Source of the DNA: Psammoneis japonica
Taxonomy: Eukaryota
Length of the DNA stretch: 20,000 nucleotides
Direction: 5' to 3'
Assembly (NCBI GenBank): GCA_008632985.1
Contig: QPGO01000198.1
Span: forward strand, 118,135 to 138,134
The position numbers and the translations under genes were made by a program. Numbering within the stretch: the first letter of the stretch is position 1; every line of letters starts with the position of its first letter. The notes beneath the pieces were generated by a model, which worked only from the letters and a program-made list of their open reading frames with translations, did not search any database and had not been told where the DNA came from. This document shows, in pieces, positions 1,549 to 19,702 of the stretch.

Positions 1549-2232
1549 ATTGTCACTGTATACTGTATCTATTGCAATCTAATATCCCAAACGTCCTTTC
1601 AAAACTTTAGAAAACAGTACCAGGTCCATCAACAACAACAGCCAACAACCAACATAACAGGCAGAGCATGAAATGCGGTGTCCGTCCTCGCAGAGTCCGT
1701 TGGCACAATGTCCCACGTTCGTATCTATATTCGATTTCGGAGAAATTAGTTTGATGTCAAATTTTTTTTAAATAAGAAAGATTTAGAGAAACATACGTAC
1801 TTGAATACGGGAATGAATTTTTGATACGAGTGAACCTCGTGCCAGACACACAACGTACAGTGTACAGTATGCCATTTTGGATTCAGCGGGGTGTGGGGGG
1901 CACCTCCCTACAATTTTTCTAAGTACATTCTAATGACGCATTCAACACTTGACTGTTCTTTGGGGGAGCGTTCCTTCGTCAAACATTCCCCCGCTCATCA
2001 ATTGGTGAACAACGTGCCAACGCGATCTTGCTTCAACACAGCTTGAAACTTCAACACAAGATCGATCGCTAACTAACAAGAAGATCTGGATCGCAGATCG
2101 AAGCGAACACATTCTGCCTCTCATAAACCCATCATCACAATAAGCAGCATCTGGCAGCTTATTGTTTTGTCGTCTCTTTGTTGAAAACATCTTTTCCAGC
2201 CCAAATTCGTCTAGCTGGCGAATTCCACAAAG

Positions 2233-3818
2233 ATGAAACTTCTTTTGTTGTGTTCCTTCCTCGGCATTGGCATTGCATTCTCATCGCAGTTTTCCGAGCT
2301 CGAACATCGATACCCTCCTCACCAGAAACCTCGCAGTCTTACGGACACGATTATTCCGGTGGAACACAGTGGCGATTTGTACAGTGAAGGTGTCGACATG
2401 CTGATCCTTTCGCAATACATTTACGAGTTGGCGGCTCTGCGAAAGCATGCAAAGAAAAAGAAAGAAACAGACTTGTTGAAGAGCCTCGACGTTAGTAAAG
2501 AACATCCCAAGTGTCTTGCCGAGCTCAATCAGGTGCTCAAGGCGAATCTTCATCACATGTAAGGGTCTACGAGTGCGGTTGTCTATAGCAAGTCTTGTGT
2601 TTCGAGTCTCACATTACTCTTTCTCGAATGATGTTGCGTATATAGTGGCGGCAAGGGCGGGGAACAAGAGGCCATTGATGCTGTTGCTGCCTTTTTGAGT
2701 AGTGAAGATAAGCACGACCAAGAGCTTGTACATGGAACCAAGCACAATCATGATTTGCACGTGTTTGCCGACAAAAAGGACGATGCCAAGGCATCTCGTG
2801 TTCACGGCATTGCCGTGAATAAGAACAGGAAGCGAGTCGAGATTGTGTTTCGCGGAACGGCCAATGTATCACTCAAGAATGCCTGGTGGGATTGGTCCAC
2901 CAACTTGAAAGCGGTATGGAGGGTAAGTAGGAATAGTCTCCAAAGCAGGAAGATGTCATCTGGTCGATATAATAATCTTACAGAGTCCAATTTCTTCTTG
3001 TTGTGACAAAAGAGAAAGGAATCTAATCCTGATACTGATGCAGAAAAGGATGACGTCGTCAACAGTATCTTGGTACACCGGGGCTTTTCCAAAGTCCTTC
3101 TTGGCTCCCGAAAGAGCAAGATGAGGCCCATTGACAAGATTCTACAGGAAGACATCAAGCCGCTTATGCAACCGGGTTACCGGTAAGTAATACAGCGTTG
3201 AGAAAAGAAGAAGAAGAAGAAGTCGTTGTCTGTTTCTAACCATGGTTGCAGATTGTACGTGTCTGGTCATTCGTTGGGAGGTGCGATTGCGACACTTTTT
3301 GGTTTCTACGCGGCCGCGGATCCGGACCTTACCCAAGACGGGCCCGTCACGATTTACACATATGCAGCGCCTCGCGTCGGTGATGCTACCTTTCGAGAAG
3401 CCTGTGGTCATCTCGAGAGACAAGGGAAACTTCGTCATGCTCGTTTCCACAACCAACTGGATAAAGGTGCGTTTTTTTTATACTGGATCAGGCTTTGGAG
3501 CGTTTTCATGTAGGACAATCTCATGTCTCATTCTTAATTTTCTTATTTGTAGTCCCTCAACTACCCTGGTTGGCTGGGCTTTACAAACATGTTGGTATGG
3601 AGGTACGACTTCGAAAGGATGAGCCTCCCATTGTGGATTATCCTGTCAAACGCTCATGGCAGCAATCTGGTCAAGGGGTCGTGAAAAGCGTTAAAGCGTT
3701 ACCACAAGCCTTGAAGAATCATTCCCCCGAAGAAATGATGAAACGATTCAAAAAGGCCAAGGACGCTTTTCTCAAATCGACGCTGGAGCACGAATACCGT
3801 GCCATGTGGGGAATTTGA
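2233..3818 (+). CDS. Secreted class 3 (fungal-type) lipase, alpha/beta hydrolase, 5 exons
   Basis: Exons 2233-2558, 2646-2922, 3013-3182, 3252-3466 and 3553-3818 join in frame across GT-AG introns. Signal peptide MKLLLLCSFLGIGIAFS. Motifs IVFRGT, VHRGF, nucleophile elbow YVSGHSLGGA, YTYAAPRVGD, HNQLDKVPQLP (catalytic Asp), YKHVG and KNHSP (probable catalytic His). Confidence 0.93.
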
Positions 3819-4140
3819 GCAAAGATGGATCCAAAATAAAGTACAGTGGGCGCTGCATTTGTGAATGCTGGTGTGTCAAGGATAGTGCTCGCAAAAACAC
3901 GTCGGGACTAAGTACTTCCCATGGATTCGTGCAGCTCTCGTGCCAGGCCAAATCAAATCACCTTTAAAAAGAAAATTAGGGGGTTTGTACCTGTCCTTTT
4001 AGTAATTTACGACTAACTTAGCTAAATATTTTTTCCGGAGCACGCTGTCCTCTCTTCTTTGTACTTCAATCGCTTTGCTTCTGAGTTCCCGTGGTAAGGA
4101 AGGTGAAAAACTTAATGTATCAACTCTATTTCTTTCTCTT

Positions 4141-6573
4141 TCATAGTTGAACCACTTCGGCACTCTTGTCACCGAAGAGCTCCCCGGCCTTCTTGTCATC
4201 GACAACAACAAGCCAGTCGCGCTTTTTTCTTTTGCTGCCTGACGTGGACTTGTTGCGTCCGCGGCGACCATTCCTGAGGTCGCAGAGGCAGCAGAATCCG
4301 CGGGCATCTGAACAAGTAGTCGCAGACAAGGTCGATAATCGGAAACGAGTGTGTCCTGTAGTGTCTTCCATTCGGTGTGAAGTTCTTCCGACAGCTTCTG
4401 AGATACTTTTTCCTTCTTTGGCTTTCCCCGGCTCTCATGATAAAGTTTCGATGGAACAAGGGTTCGAAGCGCATCTTGTTGATTACTCACGGCAGAAACG
4501 TACTTGGACTGCACTATACAGGTGCGAAAGTCGCCATAGTCTAGGCGGTTTCGCAACAAGAAGATCAAATCGGGGCCAATGTTATCATCTGGATAGCAGA
4601 AAGGAGCAACTTGACCCTCGAACTTGGAACTGACTGACTTTGCAACCCAATCGATCGTTTTTCTAATACTCTCACTGGTGTCAACACAGAGCACGCCATA
4701 CGCCGACCTCCTTGAAATGTCGTAGGCCTCCAAAGCCGAACCGCCTTCCTCCAAATGTGAATTCAGGAAATTGTGCAGTCTGTCCTTCTCCATCAACAGA
4801 CCAGGCAACAGCAACCTCTCAAACCCTTCGCCGAGGCCACCTTCTTCCTGTTTCTTCAAATTTTCTCGGAGGTGGTGGTCGAGGTCGAAAAAATTGATCC
4901 CAGCTTGAACGACGACAGGTTCGTCGAGATGCCCTTTTATGCTGGTCCCTTGTCGATCAGTTTCGCAAACTGCAGCCACGCCATTTTCGATCAGCGCTTT
5001 TGCAGAAGCATCAGCAAACGGATGCGGTTTCTGGCCAACGGCAAAACGGCACACCGCATGCTCTAGGTCGTCCACTACCCGCCTAAGCAACTGGTTCATG
5101 CTCGATTCAGTGCCGGAACATTTGCGATCCACCCTTGCAAAGCAAGCATGCGCCGAAGTTTCGCCGGCAGTCCATGACTCTCGTCGGTTGTTTTCTTGAT
5201 CTGCACGCGTCATGACGTTCAAATGTCGATCCAAGGCTTCAATCAGTTTGGCACCCATGTCCTCGAAACTACCTTGAGTTCTCCACACTTGATTCGAGTG
5301 ACTTTTGTTCTCCCGTCGACTGGAGTGTGCTTCCAAAAAGCCAGCAGCCCATCTTGGTCGTCCACGAAGCCAGTTGGCGATGTGCGTCATGACATCATCG
5401 CGCACGCCAGATGGATCAAGCATTTGTTTGGCGCAGGCATTCTTTGACCTCTTCTACACTGAGCAACCTGAAACCCACGAAGAAGAGGCTTGCACTGTCA
5501 CCGAGCGATTTTCCCACAATGGACAGCGTCTGTTCGGAAAGTTGGTCCAATGCGAGACCTGTGCCCGAGAACACTGGAAAGTGCAAATCCTTTCGCATCT
5601 TGGACAAACAACCAAATCCCCCCACAATGGCAGAGAAAGCTGACCTGGCCTGCATGCCATTTCTGCTCAGAAATTTCATCTTGTTGAGCTCCAAGAGTGC
5701 TTGTGCTTCGTCAACAAAGATGGACCAAACTTTCTTTGTGGAGGCACAATGATCGAAGCGAACAGCTCCATTGACGCGGTCTTCATCACACTTCTCCATG
5801 GCATCGTAAAATGTGTCCCCGCCAAGCAGTCTTTCTGGAAATGTTTGATGCAGCAACCACTCGCGCGGAGTCATGTCCCTCTTCAAAATTTTGTTCAGTT
5901 CCTCATGGACAACATGCCGGACAAAAAGGAGCACCGACAGTCGCTCTTGAATTGTGGTGCGATTCTTGTCGTTCGTGCTTCGTGCGGGTGTCATTCGCCT
6001 CTGGCAAATCGCAGTCCAAAACATGCAGGAGATCCCGTGAACCTGGGTTTCTGCAAAAGTCGTCCACCAAAAAGTAGAACCCCTTCTCACGGCTCAGACA
6101 TTCAAAGATGGTGCGGGTCTTTCCAGCACCGGATGTGCCACAGAGAAATGTCGGTCCTTCTTCTTGCGCTCTGCAAATGTGTTGGTGGCCCTCGGGTTGA
6201 GAATGGTGCACTGTGTTGTGTCCACTGTTGTCTGCCAGACCCTGCAGAAGAGAAGGCATGGACGCGACGTTGACATGAAGCCTTCCTGCTGTCCAAGGGA
6301 GTGCCGCAATGGAACATTCTCGCGCTGGGGCTTCCACAGTGACGCCAACAAGGCGTCTCGTTGGGGCTCAAAAAATTCCAGCTGTGGTCCATTGACACTG
6401 ATGCTTTCTTCATGCTCCTGGAGGCAGGCTGCCACGAAGACCTTCACCGTGTCCGCAACCTCTTTCTTCTCCACACCCATCTTAAGATCCTCGTTTGAGC
6501 GGTTGGGTGCTGTTGGTTCAGCAGAAGAAAGTGGGTTGCTGTTGCGTTGGAGCAAGTGGCGTTGCTTTGTCAA
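4141..6573 (-). pseudogene. Crinkler/CR-effector-type P-loop NTPase + PD-(D/E)xK restriction-endonuclease-fold protein; frameshifted, 5' half hypermutated
   Basis: Successive minus frames give Walker A GTSGAGKT (6116-6139), Walker B IFVDEAQ (5701-5721), FSGTGL, WLRGRPRW, then the REase motif YPDDNIGPDLIF...IVQSKY (~4497-4595) and a C-terminal DWLVVVDDKKAGELFG...VVQL* ending at 4141. At least four frameshifts (~6270, ~5980, ~5425, ~4260). The 5' end is uncertain. Confidence 0.75.
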
Positions 6574-6622
6574 CGTTCACTGGGTCATTCTGTTGTTCTT
6601 TCTTGTTTCTTGCTTTCCCCAG

Positions 6623-8830
6623 GTTTTCCCACTTCTCCAAAATCGAGCAATGCAACATTCAAGCACAGACATGTGTCAAAATCGAATCAGCAATCAACTG
6701 TGGGCATCCGTTCATCGCGTTTGTGATCGCAATCCCGCCCGAGGGAACCATCGCACGGTCGTTTGTGCACCACAGTCAAGTGGTGAACGCCACTTTTCAG
6801 TGTGATGGGAGGGGTGATTTTGCAAAGCATTCGTGATTGCTTCACTGTGGAATTCAGAAGTTTTTTCAGCATGTTTGCGACTCAGAAGAGACGCAGAATC
6901 CCACCGGAGTGGAGGTGATTGAGCACCTTGATCCGGTGGAACAGAATCTGCGGCACCCAACGCTGGATGTCATTGGGGACGGGTGCAATCCGGCAGATTT
7001 TCTGAGTGAGAACAAGCTTTCAATGTTGGTCAACAACATGGACCACTCATGTGAGGATGCTGAAGTGCATCTCACGGCGGAGCTAGAACAGAATCAGGAG
7101 CTGTTCGATGCCGAGGTGCACCTGGAGCAGCGCTGTTTTGGCAGGTGCTGTCTCTAGAGAGTTGACAGCATGCGGTGCTGTGGTGTCTGTGTCATCCCAC
7201 TGGTGCATCAAATTGGCATTTCATGCCACAGTCGGGCCAAAAGAAGCGATTCAACAGCTCAGTCTAGAAAGTTTTAGCGGTGGCGCGCGAACAAAAAATG
7301 CGTGGAAGCAGTGCCACAATGTGCGGCCCAAAAAGAATGACACGGCATTCCGTTGTGGACAATTGTTGGTTGCCGGAGGAAGCACAACAGACAGGGGAAA
7401 CAAGCATGGTGAAGAGACGACGCAAGCAAAGAGACCGACACTGATGCAAGTGCCGGAGAGAGATGCAAGGACAGCAATCCAACGACATTGCAAGGGCGCA
7501 AAAGAGAGAACAGATCCATTTGAGTTAGTGCCATGTCTTCAACAAAAAAAGAACAATGCAAGACAACATTGGCATGCACAAAAACTCACACAGAGAAGCA
7601 CCACACCAGCGCCAGAAAAATGACCACATCTGCGGTGAGATGCAACAGCACAAGGAGGTGAGAACACACTTTTCTACCAGCGCAATGCAACAACGAGCAA
7701 ATGGGCAATGGAAACTCACCAGTGGGAGCAAAACTTGGGCTGTCTGGATTGCCAATGGCGGGCAGGGAGGAAAGAAGTCTGCTGGTTCCACGGAGCATGA
7801 TGACAAAAGCACGCAGCAGATTGGCATGAGCTTTGGCAGAAAGTGGGTGCTTGGGCTTGAGTGACTTGTCCAGTGCACACAAATCATGGCAGCAGCTTGG
7901 AGAATGGAGGCAGTGCTGTGGTGGGATGGCATGGGCCGGGGAGAGAAGAGGTGTTGCGGCAGAACGGCGTGGAATGGGGACGGAGCCAAAAACAGTGATG
8001 GTGTCGGTGCAGACCCATGGACATCAATGTCCCCATCTTCGAGTCCTGTGCATCAACACACACAGGGCAAGGACATTCAAGGTGAGTGCCGTTGCAAACG
8101 AGAACAGGAAAAAGACGCAAGACCATTCCCACGAGAATCAGAACTCACCATGTTTTTGTTCATTCTGACTCATTCTAGAGCCAGGGCTCACTCACACAGC
8201 ACAACCCAATGGAGCATGTGACACTGTCAAGCAAGGTGGGGGTTGGGAGGCAGTGTTGTCCCGGTCAAATTGGCCATGAGCGCCATTGTCGGAGGGAGTG
8301 GCGGTTGTCGATCGGCTGCTCAGAAAAATTGTGAGCCATCAACTTGAACGCGCACAGCTCGGAGTCACACAAATTCTGTTGGCAATGCAAATTGCACACA
8401 AAAAGTGCATCAGCACAAAAATGTGCAGAAGGTCTGCAAGTGGAATTGCACTGCCATCTCTGTGGCCCACACAAGGATTCTGCCATTAAAACACACCAGC
8501 ATGCACAATTTCACGTGGGTGGATTTGAGTCGTTCGTGCTAATTTTTTCAAATGTGGACCGCATGAATGGGCCAGCAATGGGAATCGAACCTGTGCACAT
8601 CACCTGGAGCTGGAACAGCCCCCCAATTCTTGGTGGTCGTGGCAGTGTTTGTTCACTTTGTCAGAGCCAATGTGCTGTGATGCTCAGACACCTGGAATGG
8701 GCATCATGAATGGTGTGGTGCAGTCATTGCGATTGATCAATTTTTGTGGCAAGCACCATGTTGGTCTTGTGGTTGCTCACGCAATCACTGAGTTCTTTGT
8801 GTGCATGTGTGCATTTACGAGCATGAACTG
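6623..8830 (+). pseudogene. Degenerate intron-containing gene of unknown family
   Basis: Candidate acceptor TTTCCCCAG at 6622. ORFs 6495-6836 and 6837-7157 are one frame split by a single TGA. With H/C read as Y and TGA as CGA, it reads like protein (AKYSRLLYYGIQKFFQYVYDSEE...AEVYLEQRYFGRYYL). It continues through frameshifts (7108-7623, 7833-8081), a clean intron 8082-8178 (GTGAGT...CTGAC..TTCTAG) and ORF pieces to ~8830. Confidence 0.55.
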
Positions 8831-9661
8831 AGTGCTCTTGTGGACCAGAGCAGTGATCCGTTAAGATGATGCATTGTTTGGATGCAACATGTTTGATCAC
8901 AGGAATGCAATGTGTTGGCTGAGTGCACAAACATTCAGGTGATGGTGTGGTGGCAGGCACTGTTGGATGCATGATGCACCACTGAGAGACGAATGTCTGA
9001 ATGTGTCAATCGACAGTTTTGCATCAATTGGTGCAAACAATGACACTGAACGGTGACCCGGCATGCTCGCAGGTTCATCAGCCAGTGGCATTTGCTGAAG
9101 CAAACTGCACACCACACATTTTCCCTCACAAAACTGTTTGTTTGCACACCAAAACGCAAAACAGCACTCTGATGCACCATGGCCACTGCTGCAGCCTTTG
9201 CAGCTGCTCTTGCGCGCTGTGTTGCCCACCAAGGTTTCACCACTGTTGAAAACCTGGAACAGGCCCCATTGACCAAAGTCAGTGACATGCTCAAGGGCAT
9301 CATGAAAGCAGCTGACCCCACTGTCAATCCCCAAGTGTGCTCCCCCCACATGGTGAATCACAAGCTCAAGGCTCTGCGTGCATGGGCTGATCACAGGAGA
9401 GCCCGAAACCAAGAACCCATGCCACCAGCCACTTTTGGTGGTTGCATTGTTGCCAAGTGTGGACAGAGCGCCTCATGGAATTGGAGCAACTCAAGTTGGC
9501 AGACTTGGACAATGACGCCAGTGCCGCCATGGAGCTCAAGCATCTGTGCGACTGGGTGGCCGACCTTCCAGGAGCTGTTGGAGACTGGAGACCGAGCTGC
9601 GACATCGCTGCACAATGCCATTGCTGGTGTCTCCCTTGTCTGCCTCATTCAGGAACATTGA
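8829..9661 (+). mobile_element. Truncated Ty1/copia (CoDi-like) LTR retrotransposon: putative 5' LTR, PBS and gag N-terminus
   Basis: Candidate LTR from TG at 8829 to ...CATCA at 9026, followed by ATTGGTG (PBS-like). ORF from ATG 9179 has SPHMVNHKLKALRAWADHRRARNQEP and WPTFQELLET...AGVSLVCLIQEH, resembling diatom CoDi gag motifs as I recall them (KLKA.R.W; W..F.E....YL....G..G.PL.Y.IR). No pol or second LTR is visible. The LTR left edge is uncertain. Confidence 0.62.
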
Positions 9662-9920
9662 TGCACTGCAGTGTCAAATGTCCTCTCTGGATCATGCAGA
9701 AGAAGCTGTGGATGCGGGGTTGCCCCATGGAGTGCCGCAATGTGGGACATTCTCCCGCTGGGGCTTCCACAGCAACATGCCACAACAAGGCGTCTTGAAG
9801 GGGCTCAAAAGCTTCCAGCTGCGGTCCATTGACACTGACACACTTTCTTCATGCTCCTGGAGGCAGGCTGCCACGAAGACCTTCGCGGTGTCCGCAACCT
9901 CTTTCTTCTTCGCATCCATC
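9660..9920 (-). pseudogene. Paralogous fragment of the N-terminal region of the NTPase-REase gene
   Basis: Aligns directly with ~6205-6482, e.g. the shared CTTTCTTCATGCTCCTGGAGGCAGGCTGCCACGAAGACCTTC...GTGTCCGCAACCTCTTTCTTCT. Proteins: KKKEVADTAKVFVAACLQEHEES vs EKKEVADTVKVFVAACLQEHEES; both have LWKPQRENVP. Confidence 0.9.
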
Positions 9921-10377
9921 CATCGCACTGTCATTCACCAGTGCTGCTGTGCACTGCTGCCTGTTGGCGTTCAGTCAGTTGCACATTGCGCACTTGCTTC
10001 GAGCTCAGTCAATTTTTTCCATCGATCGTGTCACGCAGACTCTGTGTGACATGCAGTGTGTGGCTGACGCGTTTTCTGCGATCTTTTGCTTTAGAATTGA
10101 ACACACTTTTTATCAAGTTGCGCGCAGACTTTGGCGGCCACAGAAGGAGGAAAGGTGGGCGATTGATGGAAAAAGGTGATGGGCCAATGTGGGCAAGGAG
10201 GGGGGCAGCAGAGCAAGGTGACAGGCTTGTTGCTGTGGTGTGGCAAATGTTGAGTGTTGGCACTCTGGTTGTCTGTTGACAAAATCAGAAAGAACAAGGG
10301 CCCAACAGGCGAGTGCCAGCTGCAGCGCCATCATGCCTCCTGGAGATCCAGGACATTTGGCACAACCTGAGTTGTGG

Positions 10378-10608
10378 NNNNNNNNNNNNNNNNNNNNNNN
10401 NNNNNNNNNNNNNNNNNNNNNNNNNNNNNNNNNNNNNNNNNNNNNNNNNNNNNNNNNNNNNNNNNNNNNNNNNNNNNNNNNNNNNNNNNNNNNNNNNNNN
10501 NNNNNNNNNNNNNNNNNNNNNNNNNNNNNNNNNNNNNNNNNNNNNNNNNNNNNNNNNNNNNNNNNNNNNNNNNNNNNNNNNNNNNNNNNNNNNNNNNNNN
10601 NNNNNNNN
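10378..10608. other. Assembly gap (N run)
   Basis: 231 consecutive N. Confidence 1.
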
Positions 10609-12023
10609 AAAGGCAAAGTCAAGCCACAAAGACTCTTCTTGTGCTCAAAGCAATGTGAAATGAAAAGCAAAGAGGGGGGCCTTGCTGGGGCGGAAGAGAA
10701 GTCCCGGCTCGGTCCACTCGCCAGGACGAGCTGGTTGTTTGTTTTGCAGTGGGCTCAATTTTGACATCAAAGCAGTTGAGAGCAAACTCCAGATGCAGTT
10801 TTGACATGAAATGACCAGTTTCTCAAGGATTTTCCTTCACCCAGTTTGTGCTGTGGTGCGAGTGCTGTGTGTGGACAGCAGCTGCAGCTCGGGAGGGGCA
10901 GCGCCAGGTGGCAACCCAGGTGCATCAGCTTGCTCTTCAAAAGAGCTGCAGCCACAACTTGACAAACCCAGATGGCAGTTGCCAGAAACAGATCTCTTGC
11001 TTGAAGTGAAGCTGCTGCTGAGTTGTTTTTGCACATGAAGAAAAACAACAAGAAAGCTCATTTCCAGCTGTGCCAGCGGGGCTGCTGGGTTTGCACGTGA
11101 GAGCAGGGGTCGTGCTGCAAGCTGGGGTGAGCAAAGTCACTGGAGACAACTCAAACTGGGGTCATGTGCATGATCTTGAAAAAAGGAAACAGGAGCACTG
11201 GATCAAAAGAAGAGAAAAAAAGCGCTGCACAGGCAAGGGCAGCACCCTGCCGAGGCAGCAAAAAGCACGCCAATTGGCTTTGCTCCCCAGATGCACCAGC
11301 TGCTCCCCTGCAAAAGAGTTTTGTCATTGCTGTGTTTTCTGTCTTGTTCTTGTCATCAAAGTTTTGCATGCACTGGACAAGCTGATGATTTGAACAAGGT
11401 GCTGAAGCAACACACAAACATGGAGTGTGCGCGCATGGAAGTGGGCCGCATTTTGTGAAGGAGTTTCTGGCAATGCAGAGCAGCAGAGAACCTGCTGTGC
11501 AATTTAAAACCACACACAGATGAGTCATGGTGAGGCACTGAAAAGTGTGGCAGAGCAAACTGGCGAGAAGGGAACAAACTGCAAAGCATGGTTGTGGTGT
11601 GCAAGCACAAAACTCTTTTTCTGTGTTCTGCATTTTTGATGCACTGGCCGAAGGACTGCTTCAATCTTGACATCTCTCAGGCTTTGCTTCTGACAAAGTG
11701 ATGAGGATTCCAATGTTTGTGCCATTGGCTGCAGGCATCCCGTCGCCTGTCATTGTTTTGTCTTTCGCTGGTGCGAACACAGTGGCACAACACAACGTGC
11801 ACATGGCCAGATGGGTGTTGTGTCATTTTTAAGGGGCCCAAGTGTTGTTTTGTTGGTCTCATGTGATGTTTTGTCAGTGGGCATTGCATTTGTGTGTTTT
11901 GGCCAATCAGAAAACTCTTCCTAAGATTTGCGACATTTTCGTCAAAGGAAAAGAATAAATGAAATGCTCTTTCTTTTGTCGCAACGACAAATTGCAATTG
12001 GCCACATCCCTGCTTGTCATTTG

Positions 12024-12780
12024 CGAGCTCGAATTTGCACAGACATGCTCCAGAGCACATCTGTGCATTTGCGTAGATTTTGCACCAGTCGCATCGTAGA
12101 GTGATGTTGTTCGCCTGCCCCAACGAACTCTTTCTCGTACACAAAATGTTGCTCACGCCTGCCAGATGGGTTGGAGGCACATTTTCCTGGTGCAAACACG
12201 TGGAATTTAACGCAGCTGCACAGATGGTCTCTGGAGACCATCTGTGCAGGTGACAGTGCACAGATGACAGAGACCATCTGTGCACAAGTGGGGATGTCGA
12301 AACAAAGGCAACCCCATGAATGTCCCATGTGTCATGACATGATGTGATCACATTCACAGCAGGGCCCTGTTCTATGACTGGGTCATGATCATCACAACAC
12401 TGTCGTGTGGCCCTTCAAAAACACGATTGGCGAACTTAGCGTCACACAATCACACTTCCATGTCCCTGCTCATTTTTCACGAGCTCCAATTTGCACACGA
12501 ACCACGTGCTGGTTCCTGTGCATTTACATGCATTTTACACCAGTCACATCGTAGAGGGGTGTTGTTCGCCGGCCCTGACGAACTCTTTCTCAGACACAAA
12601 ACACTTTTCACTGCATTCCGGCACATGACTGCCGGCTCGGTGGACACTGTTTCGAGTGCGTTTTCATGTAGAGCCTGCTGCAGATGCAGGCATTCAGATT
12701 TAATCGGTGCAAATCTATGCAGCATTTTGCGCAGGGTGCACACGGACCACCAGGTGGTTCGTGTGCACAAGCAGGGACAT
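12024..12780. repeat. Two diverged direct-repeat units, each bracketed by 31-32 bp TGCACA...TGTGCA palindromes
   Basis: 12024-12150 aligns with 12480-12605 (CGAGCTC.AATTTGCACA...CACCAGTC.CATCGTAGAG...TGTTGTTCGCC.GCCC..ACGAACTCTTTCTC...CACAAAA). Hairpins at 12036-12067, 12216-12249, 12256-12285, 12492-12522 and 12736-12768. Confidence 0.85.
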
Positions 12781-13269
12781 TCACGAACAATTTTTACAAC
12801 TCCTCACATGCGCTCTCATCAAAGAATGCTTTTTCAGGAAGTGACGTCATTTGTGCCATTTTTTTAACAACTTCAATGCCTTCTATCTCGAAAACGAGTC
12901 AGAATCCCCCCACTTTTCTTGTTTCCAAAACATCTCTTTTACTCAGCTGCACAACATGAGTGAATCATAAAAAAATCTGCAGAACCATTTTGGAGACATT
13001 TTTGCTTTTGTGCAATCGTGCAGCATGTCACGAGCTCTTTTTCTGAATTTTGGTCTCAACTTCACGATCGGTGTTCCATGCATGGCAACGTAGACAGAAC
13101 CCTGAAACCATCGTTTCCTCATCCACCTTCATGTGTTGCACTTGGTCCATAAAAGTCAGACCCATCCACCTGGTTTGAAAAATCTCACTCCATTTGCTCC
13201 TCCTTTCGCTGACCAATGAGGTCCCATTTTTTCAAAATTCCGAAAAACGAGTTGAAATTCCAGGCCCTG
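12360..13269. mobile_element. Possible non-autonomous DNA transposon with hAT-like termini
   Basis: Starts CAGGGCC (12360) and ends GGCCCTG (13263-13269). No recognisable coding content. Retains more TpA than its neighbours. No matching 8 bp target-site duplication. Confidence 0.35.
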
Positions 13270-13361
13270 ATGGGTGCACAACACTTAGTTGACATCCACC
13301 TGACTGCAAGACGCCTCTCCGGGTCCCTCCCCGTGAGGCAAAACACTCAACCAGCCACACC

Positions 13362-16200
13362 ATGAGAGCGCAGCCGGTCCATCAAGTTCTCTCTCGCATC
13401 AAAGAACAAAACTGTTGCCTGGGAAAAGCGAAACAACACAAGAACCAACTGTGTGAAAAGCAACCACACGAGAAAAGTGTGAACGAGAAATGAAACAATG
13501 ACGATGACTGCTGGCGAGGTGATGATGGTGACGATCGCCACAACAACAAAAAGCCACGCCGAGCGGCTGCGAGGAGTTCCTCCTCCAGAAGTGGTGCTGC
13601 TGCTTCTTCTGGTTCTCATCAGGACGTTCCTCATCGAGGAGGAAGAGCAGATGAAAGCCAAGGAGGAAGAACAGATGGTGATCCACACCGTCCAGGAGGA
13701 AATCAAACTGACCAGGATGGTTGTCATGGACCCACTCCTTGGCAAGATCATAAGCACCATCAACCATCGCAACCACAACCACAGCATCAAGATCGAGGAC
13801 ATCGAAATGAACAACAACAACAACAACAACCGCACCAACGTGATGACGATCATTGTTGTCAACACCAGCAGCAGCAAGATCATCGTCCTCCTCCTCCTCC
13901 TCAGTGTCATCCTCAAGAACAACAACACAGTGGAAGAGGAGATCGTGGTCAGCATCAGCAACAGCAATCTGGTGGTGGTCATTGTGGTCATCATGGACGA
14001 CCCTCAGGAGGAGGAGGAGGAGGTGAAGGGTGCCACCAACAACAAGACTCTGCGCCTCCTTGTCGAGGTTCTTCTTGGCAGCAGCAACAACAGTGCCGTG
14101 GTGATCATTGTCAGCATCAACAGCAGCAGCCTCAACCACAGCATCACCAGCCGCCGCATCAGCAATGCCAGCAAGGAGTTCCACAACAGCAGCGGCATCA
14201 ACAAGGTCGCTGCTTTGATGGAAGCCTGCAAGGCACTGTTCTCTGCTGCTGGAGTGAGAAGTCTTTTCTTGTTCCTCCCTGTTCTTGTCACCATTTGTTC
14301 AAGTGCACCTTCCATCATTGTTGCCATGATTGGTGGCAGTGGCTGCAGCACATCACTGGCTCACACCAGCGATGCACTGCAGGTCTGGGCCAAGAATCTG
14401 AGTTTGCAGTCCTGCCAGCTCCGGTTGGCAATTGAGGTGGAACAAAGTGTTTGGGCAGAACAACAGTGCCGTGCAACAAGTCAAGAGTTTCAGCAGTCAA
14501 AAGTGGTGCTCTTTGACATTGCATCACAGATCACCATGGAAAATGAAGAAATCTTTCAAACAGTGTGGGCCACCACCTTGGCGTTTGGCACCGAGCCTTT
14601 GCCCCCTCCTTTGCCCGTGAATCCAGAACATGCCCCAGCATTGGTCAACCCATGATCAATGACAGCTGAATGACATCATCACCACCTGACCTGACTGCAT
14701 TGCCCCTGCATGTCCACAGACAATGCAGAGCTGCTGCAGCGCCAAAAACAACAGAAACTCCAGTTGGCGCCTGCACACCATCAAAAGATGGGGTGACCGG
14801 GGCTGGTGCAGCCTGAACCACTGCCAACAGGTCAGGCACACGTGGCCTCTTGGCTGTGGCGGATGCAAAAGAAAGAAGTGAGACCAGAAAAAGCCTTGTG
14901 GCTGGTGCAAATGTTTTGGGCTGTGCCTTTGCCAATGAGCTGGGTGGCTGAATGCACAACAATCTGCGCTGTGTGCATGTCTTTGTGGCTCTGAAAAAAA
15001 AGACAATCACAGATGCTGCTGAGTTGGTTGATCAAAAGCAAACTGTCCCACATTTGGTGTTGCACAGAAAAGCTGCCCTGTGAACACACAGGCAAAAGGT
15101 GATGGTGGCAGCAGCAGTGCCACACAAATCATCACTGCAACCTGCATGAGCACATCGCTGGTGTGTTGGGAGAACAGATCCCAAGAGAAAAAATCTGGCA
15201 TGAGATCCCTGAAATGGCAGCCATTGAAATCTTCAAGAAAGTGCTCTCAGCACCAGTTGTCTTGGGCCTCGTCATTTGCACAGTTCTCCAGGAAGGCTTC
15301 TTGGAGTTGCTTGTCGGTGACTCCGATTTTTTCACAATGATTGTCCCCATTGTGTGTTGCAGTGCCTTGTTCTTGGCACAATTCACTGCAGGTGGATGTG
15401 TGTCTTGCAGTCTGGGTGGTTGCTGTTCATCAACCTCTGCTGCACAGTGAATGCAGGTGCACAAGCAAAGTGGTGCTGATGCATTCACCAGCAGCTTGAG
15501 GAGCTCCTTTGGAACCTCCAAGATGCAACGACTTGTGATTGTTGATGTTGCAACTCCCTGCACTTCCATGATGTGGCAACAAATTGCAGAGACTGTGGCA
15601 AAGCTCAAGGATTTGATGGCAGAAGAGGATGATGAGGATGCACGAGCAACCATCGCGCAATGATTTCACAATGATGTCACAAAGTGGTCCGATTGATGAT
15701 GCTGTTTCAAGTCTGCAGAGTGTTGAAGAAAGCAGACTAAAAGGATCGGTTGATGGATGGCGTGTTGGTTTGCAGAAATTCTTTGTGGAAAGTTGGGCAG
15801 TGCCAGCAAATGACAGTTTTTCTGAAGTTCAGTGGTGCACTCCTCCAAAGGAGTCCAGGCTTGTTTCACATGGTGCAGTCCTAAATTCAGGGATGAGTTG
15901 AACAATGAAGATTGCAGGTTGACCATCCATGGCTTTTTGTTTCCTGAGCATTCAGACACCAATCAAGAGTTTGTCATGTTTGACTGGCAAAGAGTTGCAG
16001 TGTCCCATGGAACGCCAAATCCTGAGTGGCCCATTGGTGTCATGGCAACATCTTGCCAGTTGAGATGAAAGCTGCAAGCAAAAATTGGTGGAAGACATGA
16101 AGGCACCAGACTCTGCTGCCTTGTTGGCCATGTCTTCCCTGCATGACGTTGACCACCATTGACGGCAACTCAATCTCAAGAGACAGCCGGTCTTCAAGCA
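13362..16200 (+). pseudogene. Degenerate gene with an N-terminal Q/G/P-rich (inferred formerly Tyr-rich) low-complexity domain and an unidentified globular region
   Basis: ATG at 13362 in frame +3, one TGA at 13491, then open past 14200 (…EQQQQQQPHQRDDDHCCQHQQQQDHRPPPPPQCHPQEQQHSGRG…). Protein-like pieces follow in other frames (14330-14655, 15163-15663, 15832-16068), split by TGA stops and frameshifts. The 3' limit is approximate. Confidence 0.55.
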
Positions 16201-16691
16201 GCTGTCTGTCAAGAAAGGGGCTGCCTCATGAAGATGTTTGCAGCGGCGCAGTGGCAGAAAGATGACCGACACAACAATTTGCAGAGCTGATTCTGACTGT
16301 CATCTCTGGCACCACTTGCCTGCTTTTTTCTTGCTGCAGCAAAGACACAGCATGCACAAGAAGAACACCCCCAGAAACTGAGTCTGCAAAAGCAACAAAG
16401 TTTGCAGCAGGAAAATTCCCTTTGATTTTCTAGGAGGAAAGTCGCTCCCAGCATTTTGTCTTCCATTGTGTGCCACAAAAGTGAGGTGGCAACATCCAAT
16501 GCCACCAGCAGTTTTTCAAACTCTCTGCCCACAGAGCCTTGAAAAAAGAAAAAAAGAGTTGCCAGCCAGAGTTGCGTGCCGGAGTGTGCTTTGTTTCATT
16601 TCTCTCACAAGCATCTTTCCAAGAACAGGAGGGTGCGTGCTGTTCTCTTGCTCCCAACATGCACAAAATCAAAGGTGTTGCTTGGTGACAG

Positions 16692-16715
16692 GTGTGTGTG
16701 TGTGTGTGTGTGTGT
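16692..16715. repeat. (GT)12 microsatellite
   Basis: Read directly from the sequence. Confidence 0.95.
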
Positions 16716-17526
16716 TTTCAAGACTCAGCAGTGCCCAGAGCTTGGCTTCCCCTCAGCTCTGGCAGAGGGTGGCAACTTGGGTCAAAACAAACCAGTTGGT
16801 TGAGTTGTGTGCAGCGGCCCTCCAGCGCTGCTCTCTGCACCTTAATTTCTGACAGAGTCAGACATGAGAAAGAGAAGATGAGTTTTTTCTCTGATGCCTC
16901 TGGGCTTGCTCTCACAATTCTCTGCACAAAACCTTGATGCCTTTGGGGCCCACAGCAATCTTGCAAAGAAAAAAATGTGGCGCAGCTGACAAAAAGCAGC
17001 ACAATTGTTTGACACAGAAAATTGGCGCCCTCTCTCTGACTTTGTCTTGTGTTGCTCAAGTGCTGGAGACACACACACACAAGACAAGGTCAATGCTCTT
17101 GTTGGACAGCAGAGAGCAGGAGAGCAGGCAACATGTCAGCGCTCTCATCAAACCAAATGCTGCCTGCCCTTCAGACCAAGACTCTCCATGTTCCCATGGA
17201 AATTGAGTTTTGTCATTTTTCAAAAGCATGCAAGGGCTTGGCACAAGGGCTTGATCCCTTTGTCTCTGACTTTCTTGCTGTGTCTTTGCTCGCATCTCTT
17301 GTGCTTCATCAGCCAGGCTGTCTTCTTCACACAACGCCCAACTTTTGTTTTGCAGCCTGGCTCAATCTGTGCAATTCCTTTGTGGCATTTCCACAAGACA
17401 TGTGACAATGACACAAGAGACATGTTGAAGCAGAGCACACAGCAACAAGCGGTGTGTTGAAACTCCTCCTCGTGTCAAAAACTAACTTCGGCCGAGGCGC
17501 CGCGTTTTGGTTTCATGCCAAAAAAA

Positions 17527-17538
17527 TTTGGCGGGAAA
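17527..17538. promoter_or_regulatory. Candidate E2F binding site TTTGGCGGGAAA
   Basis: Exact reverse complement of the canonical E2F element TTTCCCGCCAAA, at the right border of the mutated block. Function untested. Confidence 0.4.
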
Positions 17539-17996
17539 CAACATTTTTCGTTTTTTCTATATAAACATGTATGTTTCATTTGAATGTTCAACTTATTCGA
17601 TTCATTATTATAACATGAAATAAAAAATATTCAACATTGAATAAAACTATGGATATTTTCAATCATGCAAGCGGCATTCTTGAATTCTGAAACGAAAACA
17701 GAAAAAGGGGCAGATTGCGCATCTCTTTGATGGGTTTGGGGTCAGCATGGCGGCAACAACCATGGTATGTACGCGACAAGGTGTCGACTTGTGTGTGTTT
17801 TTACTGTGCCTTGCCACAGACATGGAGCGTATAAAAGGGGGAACAAGTCCCCATGTTTCGAAATTGCACCCGCATGTTTTTGATCACGGGTGTATCACGG
17901 TGTTCTCATCGATCGTGCATAATGTGACCTCACATTCATGCTGTTTTTTTCTTCTTCTTAAATTAGAGACGCATCACATCAACTAGTGGAAACGGC

Positions 17997-19702
17997 ATGA
18001 ATGCAATTGCTGCAGCTGCTCTCCTGCTTGTAAGCCTTTTCTCCGTTACAGTCGTCCATGCCCGCCCAAATTTTATATTCATGTACGCCGACGACTTGGG
18101 GTTTGGAGATTTAAAGTCGTACGGTCATCCCTATGCCATTACAGACAATGTCGATCGACTGGCCAGAGAGGGAACAGCGTTTTACGGATTTCACAATACA
18201 GGCAATATCTGTCCCACGAGCCGAGCGGGTTTCATGACGAGCCGCAATCCCTCGTGGTTTCCCAATTACACTCCCGACTTTGGATTTCGGGGTACCATGA
18301 CGGTCACACAGCTGTTACAAGACGCGGGATACCAAGTCGGACATATCGGCAAGTGGAATATCGGGGATCCTACACCCGCCAGGAGTGATACCGGCTTTGC
18401 GTTTCCGGAATATGGAATGACGGATGTGAGAATTACCCACGATGGACGAAACGACCCAAGAGGAAAGGAAGCGCATCGGTACGACTTGGCGATTGATTTT
18501 GTGGAACAAAATCAAAATGTACCATTCTATCTCAATGTATGGCAATACGTTCCACACTCGCCCATTTTACCGGCAGCCATTTTGAAGGAAAAATTTAACG
18601 GCCTCGTCGTCAATCGCAGTCTGTTTGGTCCCTATATGCAACAAAATTTTGATACAATCGAGAGACTGGGAGGAAACATTGACGTTTCCATGCAAAACTA
18701 TCTAGCCGAGGTTTATGGTATGGACATTCACATTGGTAGGTTATTGACGCGGCTCGATGAGCTGGGGTTGGCAAACAACACCCTATTGGTCTTCTCCAGT
18801 GACAATGGCCCGGCGGTCAATGATCAACCCGACGACTATGCTGCCGGATGGTCTGGTGGTCTTCGTGGTGGAAAGCCCAATTGTACGAGGGTGGACCGTC
18901 CGTGCCATTATATGTAAGGTGGCGGGACGAGTGCGGCCGGCAAGGTCAATACAGAATCCTTCTTTTCGTCACTCGACTGGCTCCCAACCATTTGCTCACT
19001 CGCCGGAGCAAATTATTCACAAGATCTTGTCGAAGGAGAGGATGTCAGTGATATATGGCTGGGATCCAATCGATCAAGAAAGAATCCAACCTTTTATCAA
19101 GATCCCTTCTCTGACAAAGTTGCGGTTCGTACGATAAATGGAAAATGCTTCAGTGGAAGAACGAACTCTATGAAATCGACGTGGATCGCCAAGAGACTTC
19201 CAACGTGTACGACGACTATCCCGAGATTGTGGCTGCCATGACAGATCTGATTGATCAATACAAGGTTACAATACCACAAAATCATGCGTTTGAAGGCCAA
19301 AGCCCGCTGCAATTTGATCCTACGGAACCGGTGCAAACCTATGAAATTCCGGCTGTGCTCGCCACTCCGGCACCCACGCCGTCACCGAGCTTGAGCCCTT
19401 CCTCCATGTACGTATCATCAAACACCACCATGAGCCCTTCCATGTTTGTCTTTTCAAACACATCGTTTCCCACAAGCAATTTGCCGAGCACAAGCCCGTC
19501 CTTTGTGCCGACGGTTTCGCCAAGTGCTCGTCCTTCTATTGTCCCGACAACCTTTCCAAGTGCTCNNNNNNNNNNNNNNNNNNNNNNNNNNNNNNNNNNN
19601 NNNNNNNNNGTCGTCCTTCTAACAATCCAACATCTCACTGAGCTTTTCTCTTCTGTTCACCATCTTCCATACCAACAATGGAACCAACTTTTTACCCACT
19701 AG
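17997..19702 (+). CDS. Secreted arylsulfatase-family (S1) sulfatase with C-terminal Ser/Pro/Thr-rich tail; frameshifted as assembled
   Basis: Signal peptide, RPNFIFMYADDLGFGDL, ICPTSRAGFMTSR, GHIGKWNIG, VPHSP, FSSDNGP, GLRGGK/AQLYEGG, SSLDWLPTICSLAG, ELYEIDVDRQETSNV, then PSxSPS repeats. Needs about four single-base frameshifts (~18877, ~18923, ~18937, ~19128). The 3' end is obscured by an N gap. Confidence 0.9.
19566..19609. other. Assembly gap (N run) within the low-complexity tail
   Basis: 44 consecutive N. Confidence 1.

Follow-up and report, generated by a model that had tools for sequence, protein, structure and literature searches.

A sharply bounded TpA-depleted, CpA/TpG-enriched block with its left edge inside a pseudogene of a probable diatom

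INTRODUCTION

Several systems are known that alter nucleic acids at particular dinucleotides. RIP, found in Neurospora and other ascomycetes, changes CpA to TpA, with TpA enrichment and new stop codons as the outcome; it is triggered by duplication, and its leakage into flanking unique DNA fades with distance. Deamination of the ADAR/ADAT type, as well as the A-to-I editing of the fungal sexual stage, acts on RNA, with U at position -1 in the fungal case.

The closest described system is that of Bigelowiella natans, in which TpA-only A:T>G:C hypermutation strikes integrated viruses, transposons and further DNA of foreign origin (Mettrop et al., bioRxiv 10.64898/2026.01.13.699255). According to the main text of that preprint, the process was measured directly in mutation-accumulation lines, is episodic and elevates the rate about 1000-fold; the mutated NCLDV region is single copy and still has a Rho TpA of 0.45. 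This 2026 preprint on a chlorarachniophyte is the one report of TpA-only hypermutation so far. Its main text makes no mention of boundaries, of trinucleotide or flanking context, or of diatoms, and no literature linking TpA-specific hypermutation to diatoms was found.

Here, we describe a block of 12.7 kb, probably from a diatom, in which nearly every TA has turned into CA or TG, the direction of change being read from homologues and not from newly arisen mutations. The block lies in a window of 20,000 nucleotides (the whole stretch of DNA analyzed), and its left edge falls within a pseudogene (Table 1).

RESULTS

Composition of the block

The TpA share was 0.41% of dinucleotides in the block and 4.14% in the flanks, the CG share 3.03% versus 5.35%, and the joint CA and TG share 21.0% versus 14.2%, so that the gain of CpA and TpG about equals the loss of TpA and CpG. 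None of the other dinucleotides shifts half as much (the largest changes were GC +2.4, TT -1.8 and AT -1.6 percentage points). Observed-to-expected ratios in the block were 0.07 for TA, 1.70 for CA, 1.66 for TG and 0.48 for CpG. Counted per 500 nt, TpA ranged from 12 to 31 in the flanks and from 0 to 6 over 5001-12500 and 13001-17500. A RIP signature is absent: TpA is depleted tenfold and the GC content is raised (50.2% in the block versus 46.7% in the flanks).

Both CA (10.81%) and TG (10.23%) are raised about equally, which indicates that both DNA strands were affected. Furthermore, between paired paralogous copies there are sites that read CA in one and TG in its partner, including one site shared by the pseudogene and its second fragment at 9721..9920. 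No recognizable viral or transposon gene was found in the block, and none of the 40 reading frames tested against Pfam, drawn from 64 frames of at least 90 amino acids, had a match; reverse transcriptase and integrase were likewise not found among them.

Outside the block, an exon of the lipase-like gene had four hits, all with PF01764, and one named hit, Odontella aurita. A sulfatase open reading frame in the window had matches with unnamed or bacterial names only.

Table 1. Positions of the features described in the window
Feature	Position	Strand	Evidence or remark
Spliced class-3 lipase-like gene (GHSLGG)	2661..3972	+	faces the pseudogene tail to tail
Introns of the lipase-like gene, GT..AG	2922-3011, 3182-3250, 3465-3550		X2 contig
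Pseudogene, family of about 800 aa	4129..6480	-	homologues P0001-P0015, tblastn, frameshift-aware alignment to P0002
Met of the pseudogene	6480-6478	-	reading frames in order -3, -2, -3, -1, -3
Part of the pseudogene depleted in TpA, 5' three quarters	4726..6480	-	single-copy depth in X1
TpA-unchanged 3' quarter of the pseudogene	4129..4725	-	holds the conserved region of the putative PD...QxK motif, 4500-4601
Walker A / P-loop GTSGAGKT	6139-6116	-	frame -2, flanked by the shifts around 6252 and 5977
Frameshift site, -3 to -1	5423..5430		4 nt are missing from one X1 contig of roughly half depth (29.3 of 62.2), an absence that would preserve the frame
Frameshift in the window sequence, -1 to -3	4238..4245		in the X1 contig, 4245 is followed by one additional G, seen at full depth (55.9 of 55.9)
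TpA-depleted, CpA/TpG-enriched block	4726..17480 (right limit approximate)	none	dinucleotide counts, change points
Left edge of the block	4700..4775	none	maximum-likelihood change point 4725
Right edge of the block	17440..17555	none	step in TA and CpG
High-copy DNA	6709..9201	none	X1 depth 269-1462
Second fragment of the pseudogene 5' end	9721..9920	-	86% identical, matches 6290-6481, inside the block
N gap inside the block	10378-10608
Island partly retaining TA inside the block	about 11750-13250

The pseudogene and its protein family

Aligning the unit 6480..4129 to the homologue P0002 needed shifts near 6252, 5977, 5430 and 4238, and because of these frameshifts we call it a pseudogene. The indel at 5423..5430 looks like a difference between two haplotypes, and the shift at 4238..4245 probably reflects either an error of the assembly or a difference between strains. 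The family is large, and its named members are diatom proteins, with Attheya, Nitzschia and Odontella among the homologue names.

The predicted layout of the family is a P-loop NTPase N-terminal half, a helical and winged-helix middle and a restriction-endonuclease-like C terminus, so that the affected gene would encode a STAND/AAA+-like NTPase joined to a putative PD-(D/E)xK nuclease domain. A helical plus winged-helix module after the NTPase is found in archaeal AAA+ ATPases and NLRs. In an AF2 model (pLDDT 87.4), residues 1-190 aligned by VIA-align with 2qen (Z 7.1, rmsd 3.5, 111 aligned), 2fna (Z 6.8), WRR4A (Z 6.0) and CED-4 (Z 5.7), and residues of about 182-396 with PaqCI (Z 4.7), R.BspD6I (Z 4.5), McrBC (Z 4.3), NgoMIV (Z 4.1) and FokI (Z 4.1), all of these under the caution line of Z 8. 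Foldseek against the PDB gave no match at an E value of 1e-3 or better, and Protein Atlas none at 0.9 or above. Pfam on the pseudogene pieces yielded nothing beyond AAA_22 and AAA_16 matches under the curated cut-offs (17.2 bits versus 27 and 18 versus 32.6, respectively). Across 36 sequences, P280, G285 and P286 never vary, and D281, D287, Q307 and K309 hardly do; we interpret these residues as a putative PD...QxK motif.

Tyrosine loss in one part of the pseudogene

The two parts of the pseudogene differ strongly in TA, with 18 TA versus 79 CA plus TG in the 3' part (4129-4725) and 8 versus 296 in the 5' part (4726-6440; Fisher p=6e-7). By codon phase, TA occurs 8, 6 and 5 times in the 201 codons of the 3' part and 2, 4 and 2 times in the 565 codons of the 5' part; being low in all three phases, the loss is not tied to one of them. 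At alignment columns with a conserved Tyr, this residue is kept in 6/6 downstream of the edge and in 1/9 upstream of it, where the others hold His (four), Cys (three) and Arg (one) (Fisher p=0.0014). Of the single-step amino-acid differences, those of the TA>CA/TG type number about 15.5 among about 118 in 6440-5101 and 1 among 36 in 4725-4129. Among 24 loci encoding relatives of the family, none is free of TA, the lowest observed-to-expected ratio over 500 nt being 0.14. Since one gene has both intact and altered Tyr parts, codon usage and family composition are excluded as explanations, and the His/Cys-for-Tyr pattern, as judged from these alignments, is real TA>CA/TG mutation of this one gene.

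The initial annotation had listed Tyr residues kept in the distal part, and all of them are present (codons 4724, 4700, 4595, 4538, 4502, 4442 and 4337), as are the two Tyr it left to the NTPase half (6076 and 5808). It had also taken six His/Cys sites for former Tyr, and homologues do carry Tyr rather than His or Cys at five of the six: FLEAH (5327; 92% of homologues, in a check against 15), ALDRH (5225; 86%), TSAH (5150; 73%), VKEC (5439; 85%) and IFEC (6100; 90%). The sixth, the His of MTHIANWLRG, is ancestral, as each of the 13 homologues covering the position has His there. The proposal that the gene serves as an internal control stands insofar as the same gene has parts with Tyr kept and lost, but a pseudogene provides no clean functional control.

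A search for hypermutated family members by conserved Tyr columns in 157 homologues found only distant relatives to be low. One sequence, P0219, keeps 0/8 conserved Tyr and has 0.8% Tyr overall, which we regard as a lead and not as a result.

Tyr>His and Tyr>Cys changes are mixed within the pseudogene. Runs of one strand orientation (TA>CA versus TA>TG, inferred) along it, counted by hand, numbered 9; this is no significant departure from the expectation of about 11.5. The mixture bears on the possibility that RNA was hyperedited from A to I by an ADAR- or ADAT-like enzyme and then fixed in DNA through reverse transcription and integration. The TA context does resemble the 5'-U preference of RNA adenosine deaminases, which is established knowledge and is discussed in the B. 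natans preprint (bioRxiv 10.64898/2026.01.13.699255). Nevertheless, the two strands are hit about equally, both Tyr changes alternate in one gene, neither reverse transcriptase nor integrase was found in the block frames tested, and the edge falls inside a colinear gene and not at the end of an element; thus, we consider an RNA origin very improbable.

Sequence accuracy and continuity across the left edge

A sequencing run, X1, was compared with the window; it is possibly the sample behind the window assembly and so is not fully independent. The two differ at 121 places and by several indels. One X1 contig of 2080 nt bridges 3112-5189 with 1 difference and 2 gaps, and another covers 5679-6322 with 6 differences, only one of which involves TA. 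The TA-poor sequence is thereby reproduced, which weakens the reading that modified bases were systematically miscalled. Polymerases are not known to read such bases as systematic TA>CA/TG. Additionally, identity to the two closest homologues, P0001 and P0002, is constant across the edge (0.64/0.70/0.69, with 0.66/0.65/0.68 for P0001 against P0002 as the control), and the protein segments encoded to the left and right of the edge are colinear within a single family. The bridging contig and the unchanged similarity make a misassembly or a paralogue chimera at the left edge unlikely, a concern raised beforehand for 4.7-5.1 kb. Homopolymer-type indels relative to X1 (3471 and 4245) and the many differences at CpG sites do speak for assembly errors or another haplotype, and N gaps are present in the window. 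Altogether, we give an artefact, whether miscalling or a misjoin of unrelated sequences, scarcely any credence.

Among the differences between the window and X1 listed in the block, 1/22 lies at a TpA-related site; almost all are at CpG, and most are CG versus TG or CA. There is no sign among them that the TpA process is active now. X2 contigs are spliced and look RNA-derived; their depth is 24.7 over 3939-4215, drops to about 3 over 4216-4769 and is zero over 4770-6431, where lack of cover is no evidence of silence.

Both edges are steps

The last dense TA before the left edge stands at 4723 and the next at 4938. A step at 4725 was the best model; the width of a logistic transition collapsed to its lower bound, and the support within 2 log-likelihood units takes in about 4700-4775 and one further point, 5100. 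Models with a step plus an exponential tail or with two steps gained only 1.6 and 2.5 log-likelihood units, respectively, over the single step, the latter at the cost of 2 parameters. Thus, a fading of the depletion over 0.5-1 kb, as initially suggested, was not borne out. As to the partial depletion initially noted for 4720-5100, 4 of 59 TA+CA+TG sites in 4726-5100 are TA versus 18/1103 deeper in the block, a weak difference (Fisher p=0.022 on post hoc limits); two of these four surviving TAs lie in the protected YTAR context. The right edge, which lies outside any gene, is as abrupt as the left: TA/(TA+CA+TG) goes from 0.005 to 0.221, and the CpG observed-to-expected ratio jumps at the same place from 0.14-0.5 to about 1.2.

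A step of no measurable width inside a gene would also be left by recombination or gene conversion, if the mutation were real and a gene once mutated over its full length (or a longer mutated domain) had received its 3' end from an unmutated allele or a close paralogue; the front would then mark a repair or crossover and not how far the mutator reached. The organism does look diploid and heterozygous, with the 4-nt indel at 5423 at about half depth and many single-base differences, and the 3' part of the pseudogene keeps an open frame in X1. On the other hand, the equally abrupt non-genic right edge makes steps seem to belong to the domain as such, the two sides are equally similar to P0001 and P0002, and one X1 contig of ordinary depth runs across the edge, with no TA-different version among the contigs listed. 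We therefore regard such a breakpoint as unlikely.

Depletion of single-copy DNA

X1 depth, with single-copy level judged at 90% likeness or more, is 52-91 up to 6708 and 51-69 over 9202-10032, both single-copy levels. The depletion extends about 2 kb beyond the start of the high-copy DNA near 6709, in agreement with the earlier suggestion that the mutation passes from the repeat block into neighboring DNA: 4726-6708, of single-copy depth and adjacent to the high-copy DNA, is depleted. Moreover, 4726-6708 and 9202-10032 are as depleted as the high-copy part.

These depths weigh against a RIP-like homology trigger, in which the 5' part was once duplicated, with 9721-9920 as a remnant, and mutation struck duplicated sequence only, so that the front would show where the duplication stopped. 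A second copy of the first 200 nt or so of the gene does lie inside the block, which also holds high-copy DNA. That copy covers only P0002 residues 47-97, however, and in all six frames of the window, a family HMM found no other fragment at E<1. In B. natans, too, the NCLDV region is reported to be single copy (bioRxiv 10.64898/2026.01.13.699255). Overall, a homology trigger appears quite improbable.

Flanking-base preference and CpG decay

Surviving TAs in the block are often in YTAR context (25/51, versus 44/295 of the flank TAs; p=2.8e-7), and none of the 20 survivors in 4726-9000 is in RTAY. This implies a flanking-base preference of the process, either for TAY on the edited strand or for RTA, the two being equivalent because they are symmetric; from 13 Tyr codons, a small sample with symmetric contexts, TAY and RTA are not separable.

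The CpG observed-to-expected ratio on the left side is about 1 up to around 5250, variable up to around 7500 and at most 0.58 beyond, so the left TpA edge lies about 0.5-2.8 kb outward of the onset of CpG depletion. Since CpG is near 1 where TpA is already lost, the two footprints do not share their left edge. In the block core the ratio is 0.07-0.5. Low CpG in the core is like the CpG decay of methylated transposon-rich DNA, a decay that, unlike what happened in the block, cannot remove TpA.

DISCUSSION

We propose, with a probability of about 0.7, that a DNA-level process turned A:T into G:C at 5'-TA-3', so that TA became TG and CA on both strands, and that it acted nearly to saturation within one bounded domain. 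The same domain would bear the CpG-decay footprint of methylated, repeat-rich DNA, and its left edge would cut a pseudogene of single-copy depth, leaving the first three quarters hit and the last quarter untouched. The most likely chemistry would be that an enzyme deaminates adenine in TA context to hypoxanthine, which replication then fixes as G, as proposed for Bigelowiella natans. The domain (chromatin state), and not copy number or homology, may be what is targeted, because single-copy-depth stretches are as depleted as high-copy ones and both edges are steps, all read from one window. Preferential survival of YTAR would reflect the flanking-base preference of the process.

A wider reading, which we hold tentatively and at slightly less than even odds, is that diatoms, like the rhizarian Bigelowiella, run a genome defence by DNA adenine deamination that erases TpA in sharply bounded silent-chromatin domains; it would be limited by domain and not by homology, prefer TAY/RTA, cut into resident genes and never make stops. 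If this were true, its presence in stramenopiles and Rhizaria would make the system an ancient one shared across SAR, and edges that fall inside genes would naturally report the position of domain boundaries. A saturated example that is probably from a diatom would extend TpA hypermutation to a major group of algae that is tractable in experiments.

The intragenic edge offers the cleanest control, as gene, frame and lineage are the same while conserved Tyr are all intact on one side and almost absent on the other. A candidate deaminase and targeting system would need to reproduce three constraints: the step edges, the TpA loss uncoupled from CpG decay on one side and the sparing of YTAR. Furthermore, since TAA and TAG are missing from such blocks, these produce many long, spurious open reading frames that gene callers could annotate.

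Compared with known systems, the block shares with RIP a regional, dinucleotide-specific transition hypermutation of repeats or methylated DNA that can enter neighboring unique genes. The direction is opposite, as RIP makes TpA, whereas the process in the block destroys it and cannot create an in-frame stop. RIP leakage also fades, whereas here DNA of single-copy depth is fully hit up to a step edge. ADAR/ADAT enzymes have in common with the block an A>G outcome and a preference for 5' T/U, but they act on RNA, whereas in the block both DNA strands are changed over a contiguous 12.7 kb that includes non-genic and single-copy stretches.

The block is probably a diatom instance of a process of the B. 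natans type. As far as the preprint describes the latter (bioRxiv 10.64898/2026.01.13.699255), in both cases only TpA>CpA/TpG changes occur, these stay within discrete kilobase regions, the footprint is low TpA with high CpA and TpG (about 0.07 and 1.7 in the block), and single-copy DNA can be a target. The hosts differ, B. natans being a chlorarachniophyte and the host of the block probably a diatom (a stramenopile). Foreign DNA is the target described in B. natans, whereas the block has no recognizable viral or transposon gene and hits a family with diatom names. Saturation is near complete in the block, unlike in the B. natans NCLDV region, and the rate was measured in B. natans, whereas the block is known from sequence alone. 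To what the preprint reports, the block adds mapped step edges, one of them intragenic, the sparing of YTAR and the overlap with CpG decay.

Composition and edges of the TpA-depleted block

Both ends of the window have a normal dinucleotide content, and its centre is nearly without TpA, with 12-31 TA per 500 nt in the flanks and 0-6 over 5001-12500 and 13001-17500 (11 in 12501-13000). Between the flanks and the block (4726-17480 vs the rest), the TA share of dinucleotides falls from 4.14% to 0.41% and that of CG from 5.35% to 3.03%, CA (7.10% to 10.81%) and TG (7.13% to 10.23%) increase, and the GC content goes from 46.7% to 50.2%. Other dinucleotides shift less than half as much, the largest changes being GC (+2.4 percentage points), TT (-1.8), and AT (-1.6). 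The gain of CA and TG (6.8 points) approximates the summed losses of TA (3.7) and CG (2.3), as expected from two transition processes, TA>CA/TG and CG>CA/TG. As a control, none of 24 metagenomic loci encoding relatives of the gene at the left edge was TA-free (mean TA observed/expected, 0.30-0.68; lowest 500-nt window, 0.14). An island at 11750-13250 inside the block has a TA share of 3-10% per 250 nt vs 0-2% around it, a higher CpG observed/expected ratio (0.5-0.8), and a direct repeat pair (12007-12146 and 12463-12601, 76% identity); it may have been inserted more recently or have been less exposed.

The left edge is essentially a step. When each TA, CA, or TG between 2000 and 10300 was taken as one trial, the best single change point was 4725, with a TA share of 0.217 on the left and 0.019 on the right. 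The initial annotation had described a mutation front fading over 0.5-1 kb within one gene, and this gradient was not recovered: a fitted logistic transition shrank to the smallest width allowed, an exponential tail added to the step gained 1.6 log-likelihood units, and a two-step model (4730-5105 at 4/59) gained 2.5 units for two extra parameters. Comparison of the proposed intermediate zone with the deeper block gives P = 0.022, with limits set after looking, and two of the zone's four surviving TAs lie in a context that survives throughout the block. The codon at 5060 encodes His where 4/4 close homologues have Tyr, and surviving TAs adjoin it at 5064, 5076, and 5084; thus, the zone has been mutated, perhaps a little less completely than the deeper block. 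The right edge (17440-17555) is likewise a step, where CpG observed/expected also jumps. On the left side this ratio is about 1 to approximately 5250, variable to approximately 7500, and at most 0.58 beyond, so that TpA loss reaches outward past clear CpG decay by some 0.5-2.8 kb.

The gene at the left edge and its neighbours

Protein-coding features of the window (positions within the window)
Feature	Position	Strand	Description
Edge gene	Met at 6480 to ~4129	minus	Series of reading frames; homologous over full length to ~800-aa proteins
Costars-domain protein gene	1-1383	minus	PF14705, E 2e-16
Class-3 lipase-like gene, spliced	2661-3972	plus	Three GT..AG introns seen in contigs of X2, a run with spliced (RNA-like) contigs
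Sulfatase gene	17997-18917	plus	PF00884, E 5e-31

The flanking genes look normal; the only named relative of the lipase-like gene is from Odontella aurita, and the sulfatase gene starts about 450-550 nt beyond the right edge of the block. The family of the edge gene is large, with 499 representatives in a 50%-clustered library (E of 1e-3 or better), and its named relatives come from two diatoms, Attheya sp. and Nitzschia inconspicua. With Odontella aurita, the named eukaryotic relatives number three and all are diatoms, names that make a diatom the probable source of the window. The family, with P0001-P0277 among its relatives, has no Pfam family of its own, and its named members are diatom proteins. 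Relative to P0002 (825 aa), the closest full-length homologue, a frameshift-aware alignment needs four frame changes, near 6252, 5977, 5430, and 4238. Contigs of the public DNA run X1 bear on each of them. The X1 contig over 5679-6322, which also covers the site near 6252, aligns without gaps, and the shift near 5977 therefore does not stem from an error in the window sequence alone. One X1 contig, at roughly half depth, is 4 nt shorter at 5423; this deletion would preserve the frame and suggests a pair of haplotypes of which only one carries the frameshift. Behind 4245, X1 carries an extra G at full depth that would abolish the shift near 4238, which suggests an indel error in the window or a strain difference. 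Together with the X1 evidence, the frame changes mark the gene as a pseudogene in its 5' part; in the sequenced material, the frame of the 3' part has probably remained open.

The reading of the product as an NTPase half and a restriction endonuclease half is no more than plausible. A P-loop (GTSGAGKT) is present, and in 36 sequences P280, G285, and P286 are invariant and D281, D287, Q307, and K309 nearly invariant; the structural matches are middling. AlphaFold modelled the 3' 396 residues with confidence (pLDDT 87.4). In the model, residues 1-190 resemble archaeal AAA+ and NLR helical/winged-helix modules (Z 5.7-7.1) and residues ~182-396 resemble restriction-endonuclease-like folds (Z 4.1-4.7); Foldseek returned no match to this model at E of 1e-3 or better. 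The predicted architecture would be similar to a STAND/NLR-type NTPase fused to a restriction-endonuclease-like domain, an arrangement known from some prokaryotic antiviral STAND nucleases, at weak scores (Z 4-7).

Loss of TpA and tyrosine within the gene

The front divides the gene into a 3' part (4129-4725) with 18 TA vs 79 CA+TG and a 5' part (4726-6440) with 8 vs 296 (Fisher P = 6e-7). By codon phase, TA numbers 8/6/5 in the 201 codons of the 3' part vs 2/4/2 in the 565 of the 5' part; it is lost in all three phases, and neither codon usage nor synonymous sites account for the loss. At conserved-Tyr columns (Tyr in at least 60% of at least nine homologues), the nine upstream of 5100 hold His four times (6187, 5327, 5225, and 5150), Cys three times (6142, 6100, and 5439), Arg once (5865), and Tyr once (6076), whereas downstream of 4726 Tyr is kept in 6/6 (Fisher P = 0.0014). 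Five of the six His/Cys examples proposed initially as former Tyr are indeed Tyr in homologues; the exception is the His of MTHIANWLRG, which is His in 13/13 covering homologues. The count of only two Tyr left upstream was correct (6076 and 5808). Amino acid differences of the single-step TA>CA/TG type make up ~15.5 of ~118 in 6440-5101, 3 of 19 in 5100-4726, and 1 of 36 in 4725-4129. P0219 (841 aa), a family relative from the representative library, has Tyr at 0/8 conserved-Tyr columns and 0.8% Tyr overall; it might be a TpA-hypermutated copy in another genome or merely a distant relative.

Assembly, alleles, and copy number

X1 contains 81% of sampled words and is possibly the source sample, yet its consensus is distinct, with 121 differences from the window, 40 of them listed, over the 2000-10300 stretch compared. 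An artefact as the origin of the front is contradicted by a 2080-nt X1 contig that spans 3112-5189 at ordinary depth (~56) with one base difference and two gaps. X1 also repeats the TA-poor sequence in 5679-6322, where only one of six differences involves TpA (6230; window TG, X1 TA). Protein identity of the window to P0001 is 0.64 (5856-5101), 0.70 (5100-4726), and 0.69 (4725-4129), and the P0001-P0002 control gives 0.66, 0.65, and 0.68 in the same zones. The closest relatives are therefore constant across the front, contrary to what a fusion of two distinct paralogues would predict, and the 2080-nt contig bridges the 4.7-5.1 kb interval in which the initial annotation had considered a chimera or misassembly. 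Gene conversion or crossover could also place a step inside a gene, which would then be a breakpoint with an unmutated allele and not the limit of the mutator; against this, the non-genic right edge is equally abrupt and the homologue distances do not change across the front.

The window-vs-X1 differences listed in the block are 22 single-base changes in 5957-8810: 16 have CG in X1 and TG or CA in the window, 2 are the reverse, 3 are other changes, and only 1 (6230, TG vs TA) touches TpA, which gives no sign of present activity of the TpA process. The pattern suggests that CpG decays very fast between haplotypes or strains, or else that methylated CpGs were miscalled in the assembly. Of the T>C differences from X1/X2 listed in the left flank, where TA is normal, four of six fall on TpA (2643, 2700, 2709, and 3550; window TA, reads CA). 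Three T>C differences at 2694-2709 lie near the end of an X2 contig, where X1 DNA has the window base; possible causes are a paralogous copy, an artefact of the contig end, and a difference between RNA and DNA.

X1 depth is 52-91 in most bins of 2000-6708 (142 in the 3108-3384 bin) and 51-69 over 9202-10032, vs 269-1462 over 6709-9201 and 395 over 10033-10300. High-copy DNA thus begins about 230 nt upstream of the gene's Met, and the TA-free state extends about 2 kb into DNA of single-copy depth. A duplication-limited, RIP-like trigger is weakened by this fully mutated DNA at single-copy depth. A second copy of the gene's 5' end occupies 200 nt at 9721-9920 (86% identity), and a search of all six frames of the window with the family HMM found no further gene fragments at E below 1. 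Sites with CA in one copy and TG in the other occur in this pair and in the repeat pair 12061/12516, as expected if a single ancestral TA had changed independently to CA in one copy and to TG in the other.

Context preference, false reading frames, and mechanism

YTAR (CTAA, CTAG, and TTAA) accounts for 25/51 surviving block TAs vs 44/295 flank TAs (P = 2.8e-7). Among block survivors there are no ATAC or ATAT and one GTAC, and 0/20 in 4726-9000 are RTAY. A site thus appears to be spared when both strands offer an unfavourable neighbour, which implies an enzyme preferring TAY or, by symmetry, RTA; the two are not separable from 13 Tyr codons. TA>CA/TG changes cannot make an in-frame stop and remove TAA and TAG. 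Consequently, 6600-17600 holds 64 stop-to-stop frames of at least 90 aa on both strands (the longest 390 aa, 13483-14655), and none of the 40 tested matched Pfam; blocks of this kind may lead gene finders to predict genes that do not exist.

The net outcome is A:T>G:C change limited to TpA on both strands, in a domain with step edges that includes single-copy DNA and overlaps DNA bearing the signature of cytosine-methylation decay. RNA editing followed by retro-copying is contradicted by the strand symmetry of the changes. Of 231 mutations that arose in two integrated viral regions of Bigelowiella natans in mutation-accumulation lines, 230 were A>G or T>C, every one of these at TpA, and the genome has 124 TpA-depleted, CpA+TpG-enriched clusters; the preprint's authors suggest that an ADAT2-like enzyme deaminates adenine (bioRxiv 10.64898/2026.01.13.699255). 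Adopting this proposal, adenine deamination would most likely be the chemistry behind the block. This preprint was the only paper on TpA-specific hypermutation that full-text literature searches returned, and its main text makes no mention of diatoms, boundaries, or flanking or trinucleotide context (bioRxiv 10.64898/2026.01.13.699255). The TpA-restricted, domain-limited A:T>G:C pattern of the window matches the process measured directly in the B. natans lines, as reported in that main text. The kind of process is already known, if only very recently described, and the window would add another case, probably the first from a stramenopile. This case is marked by near saturation, mapped step edges, a context preference, and one edge lying inside a gene that acts as its own internal control.
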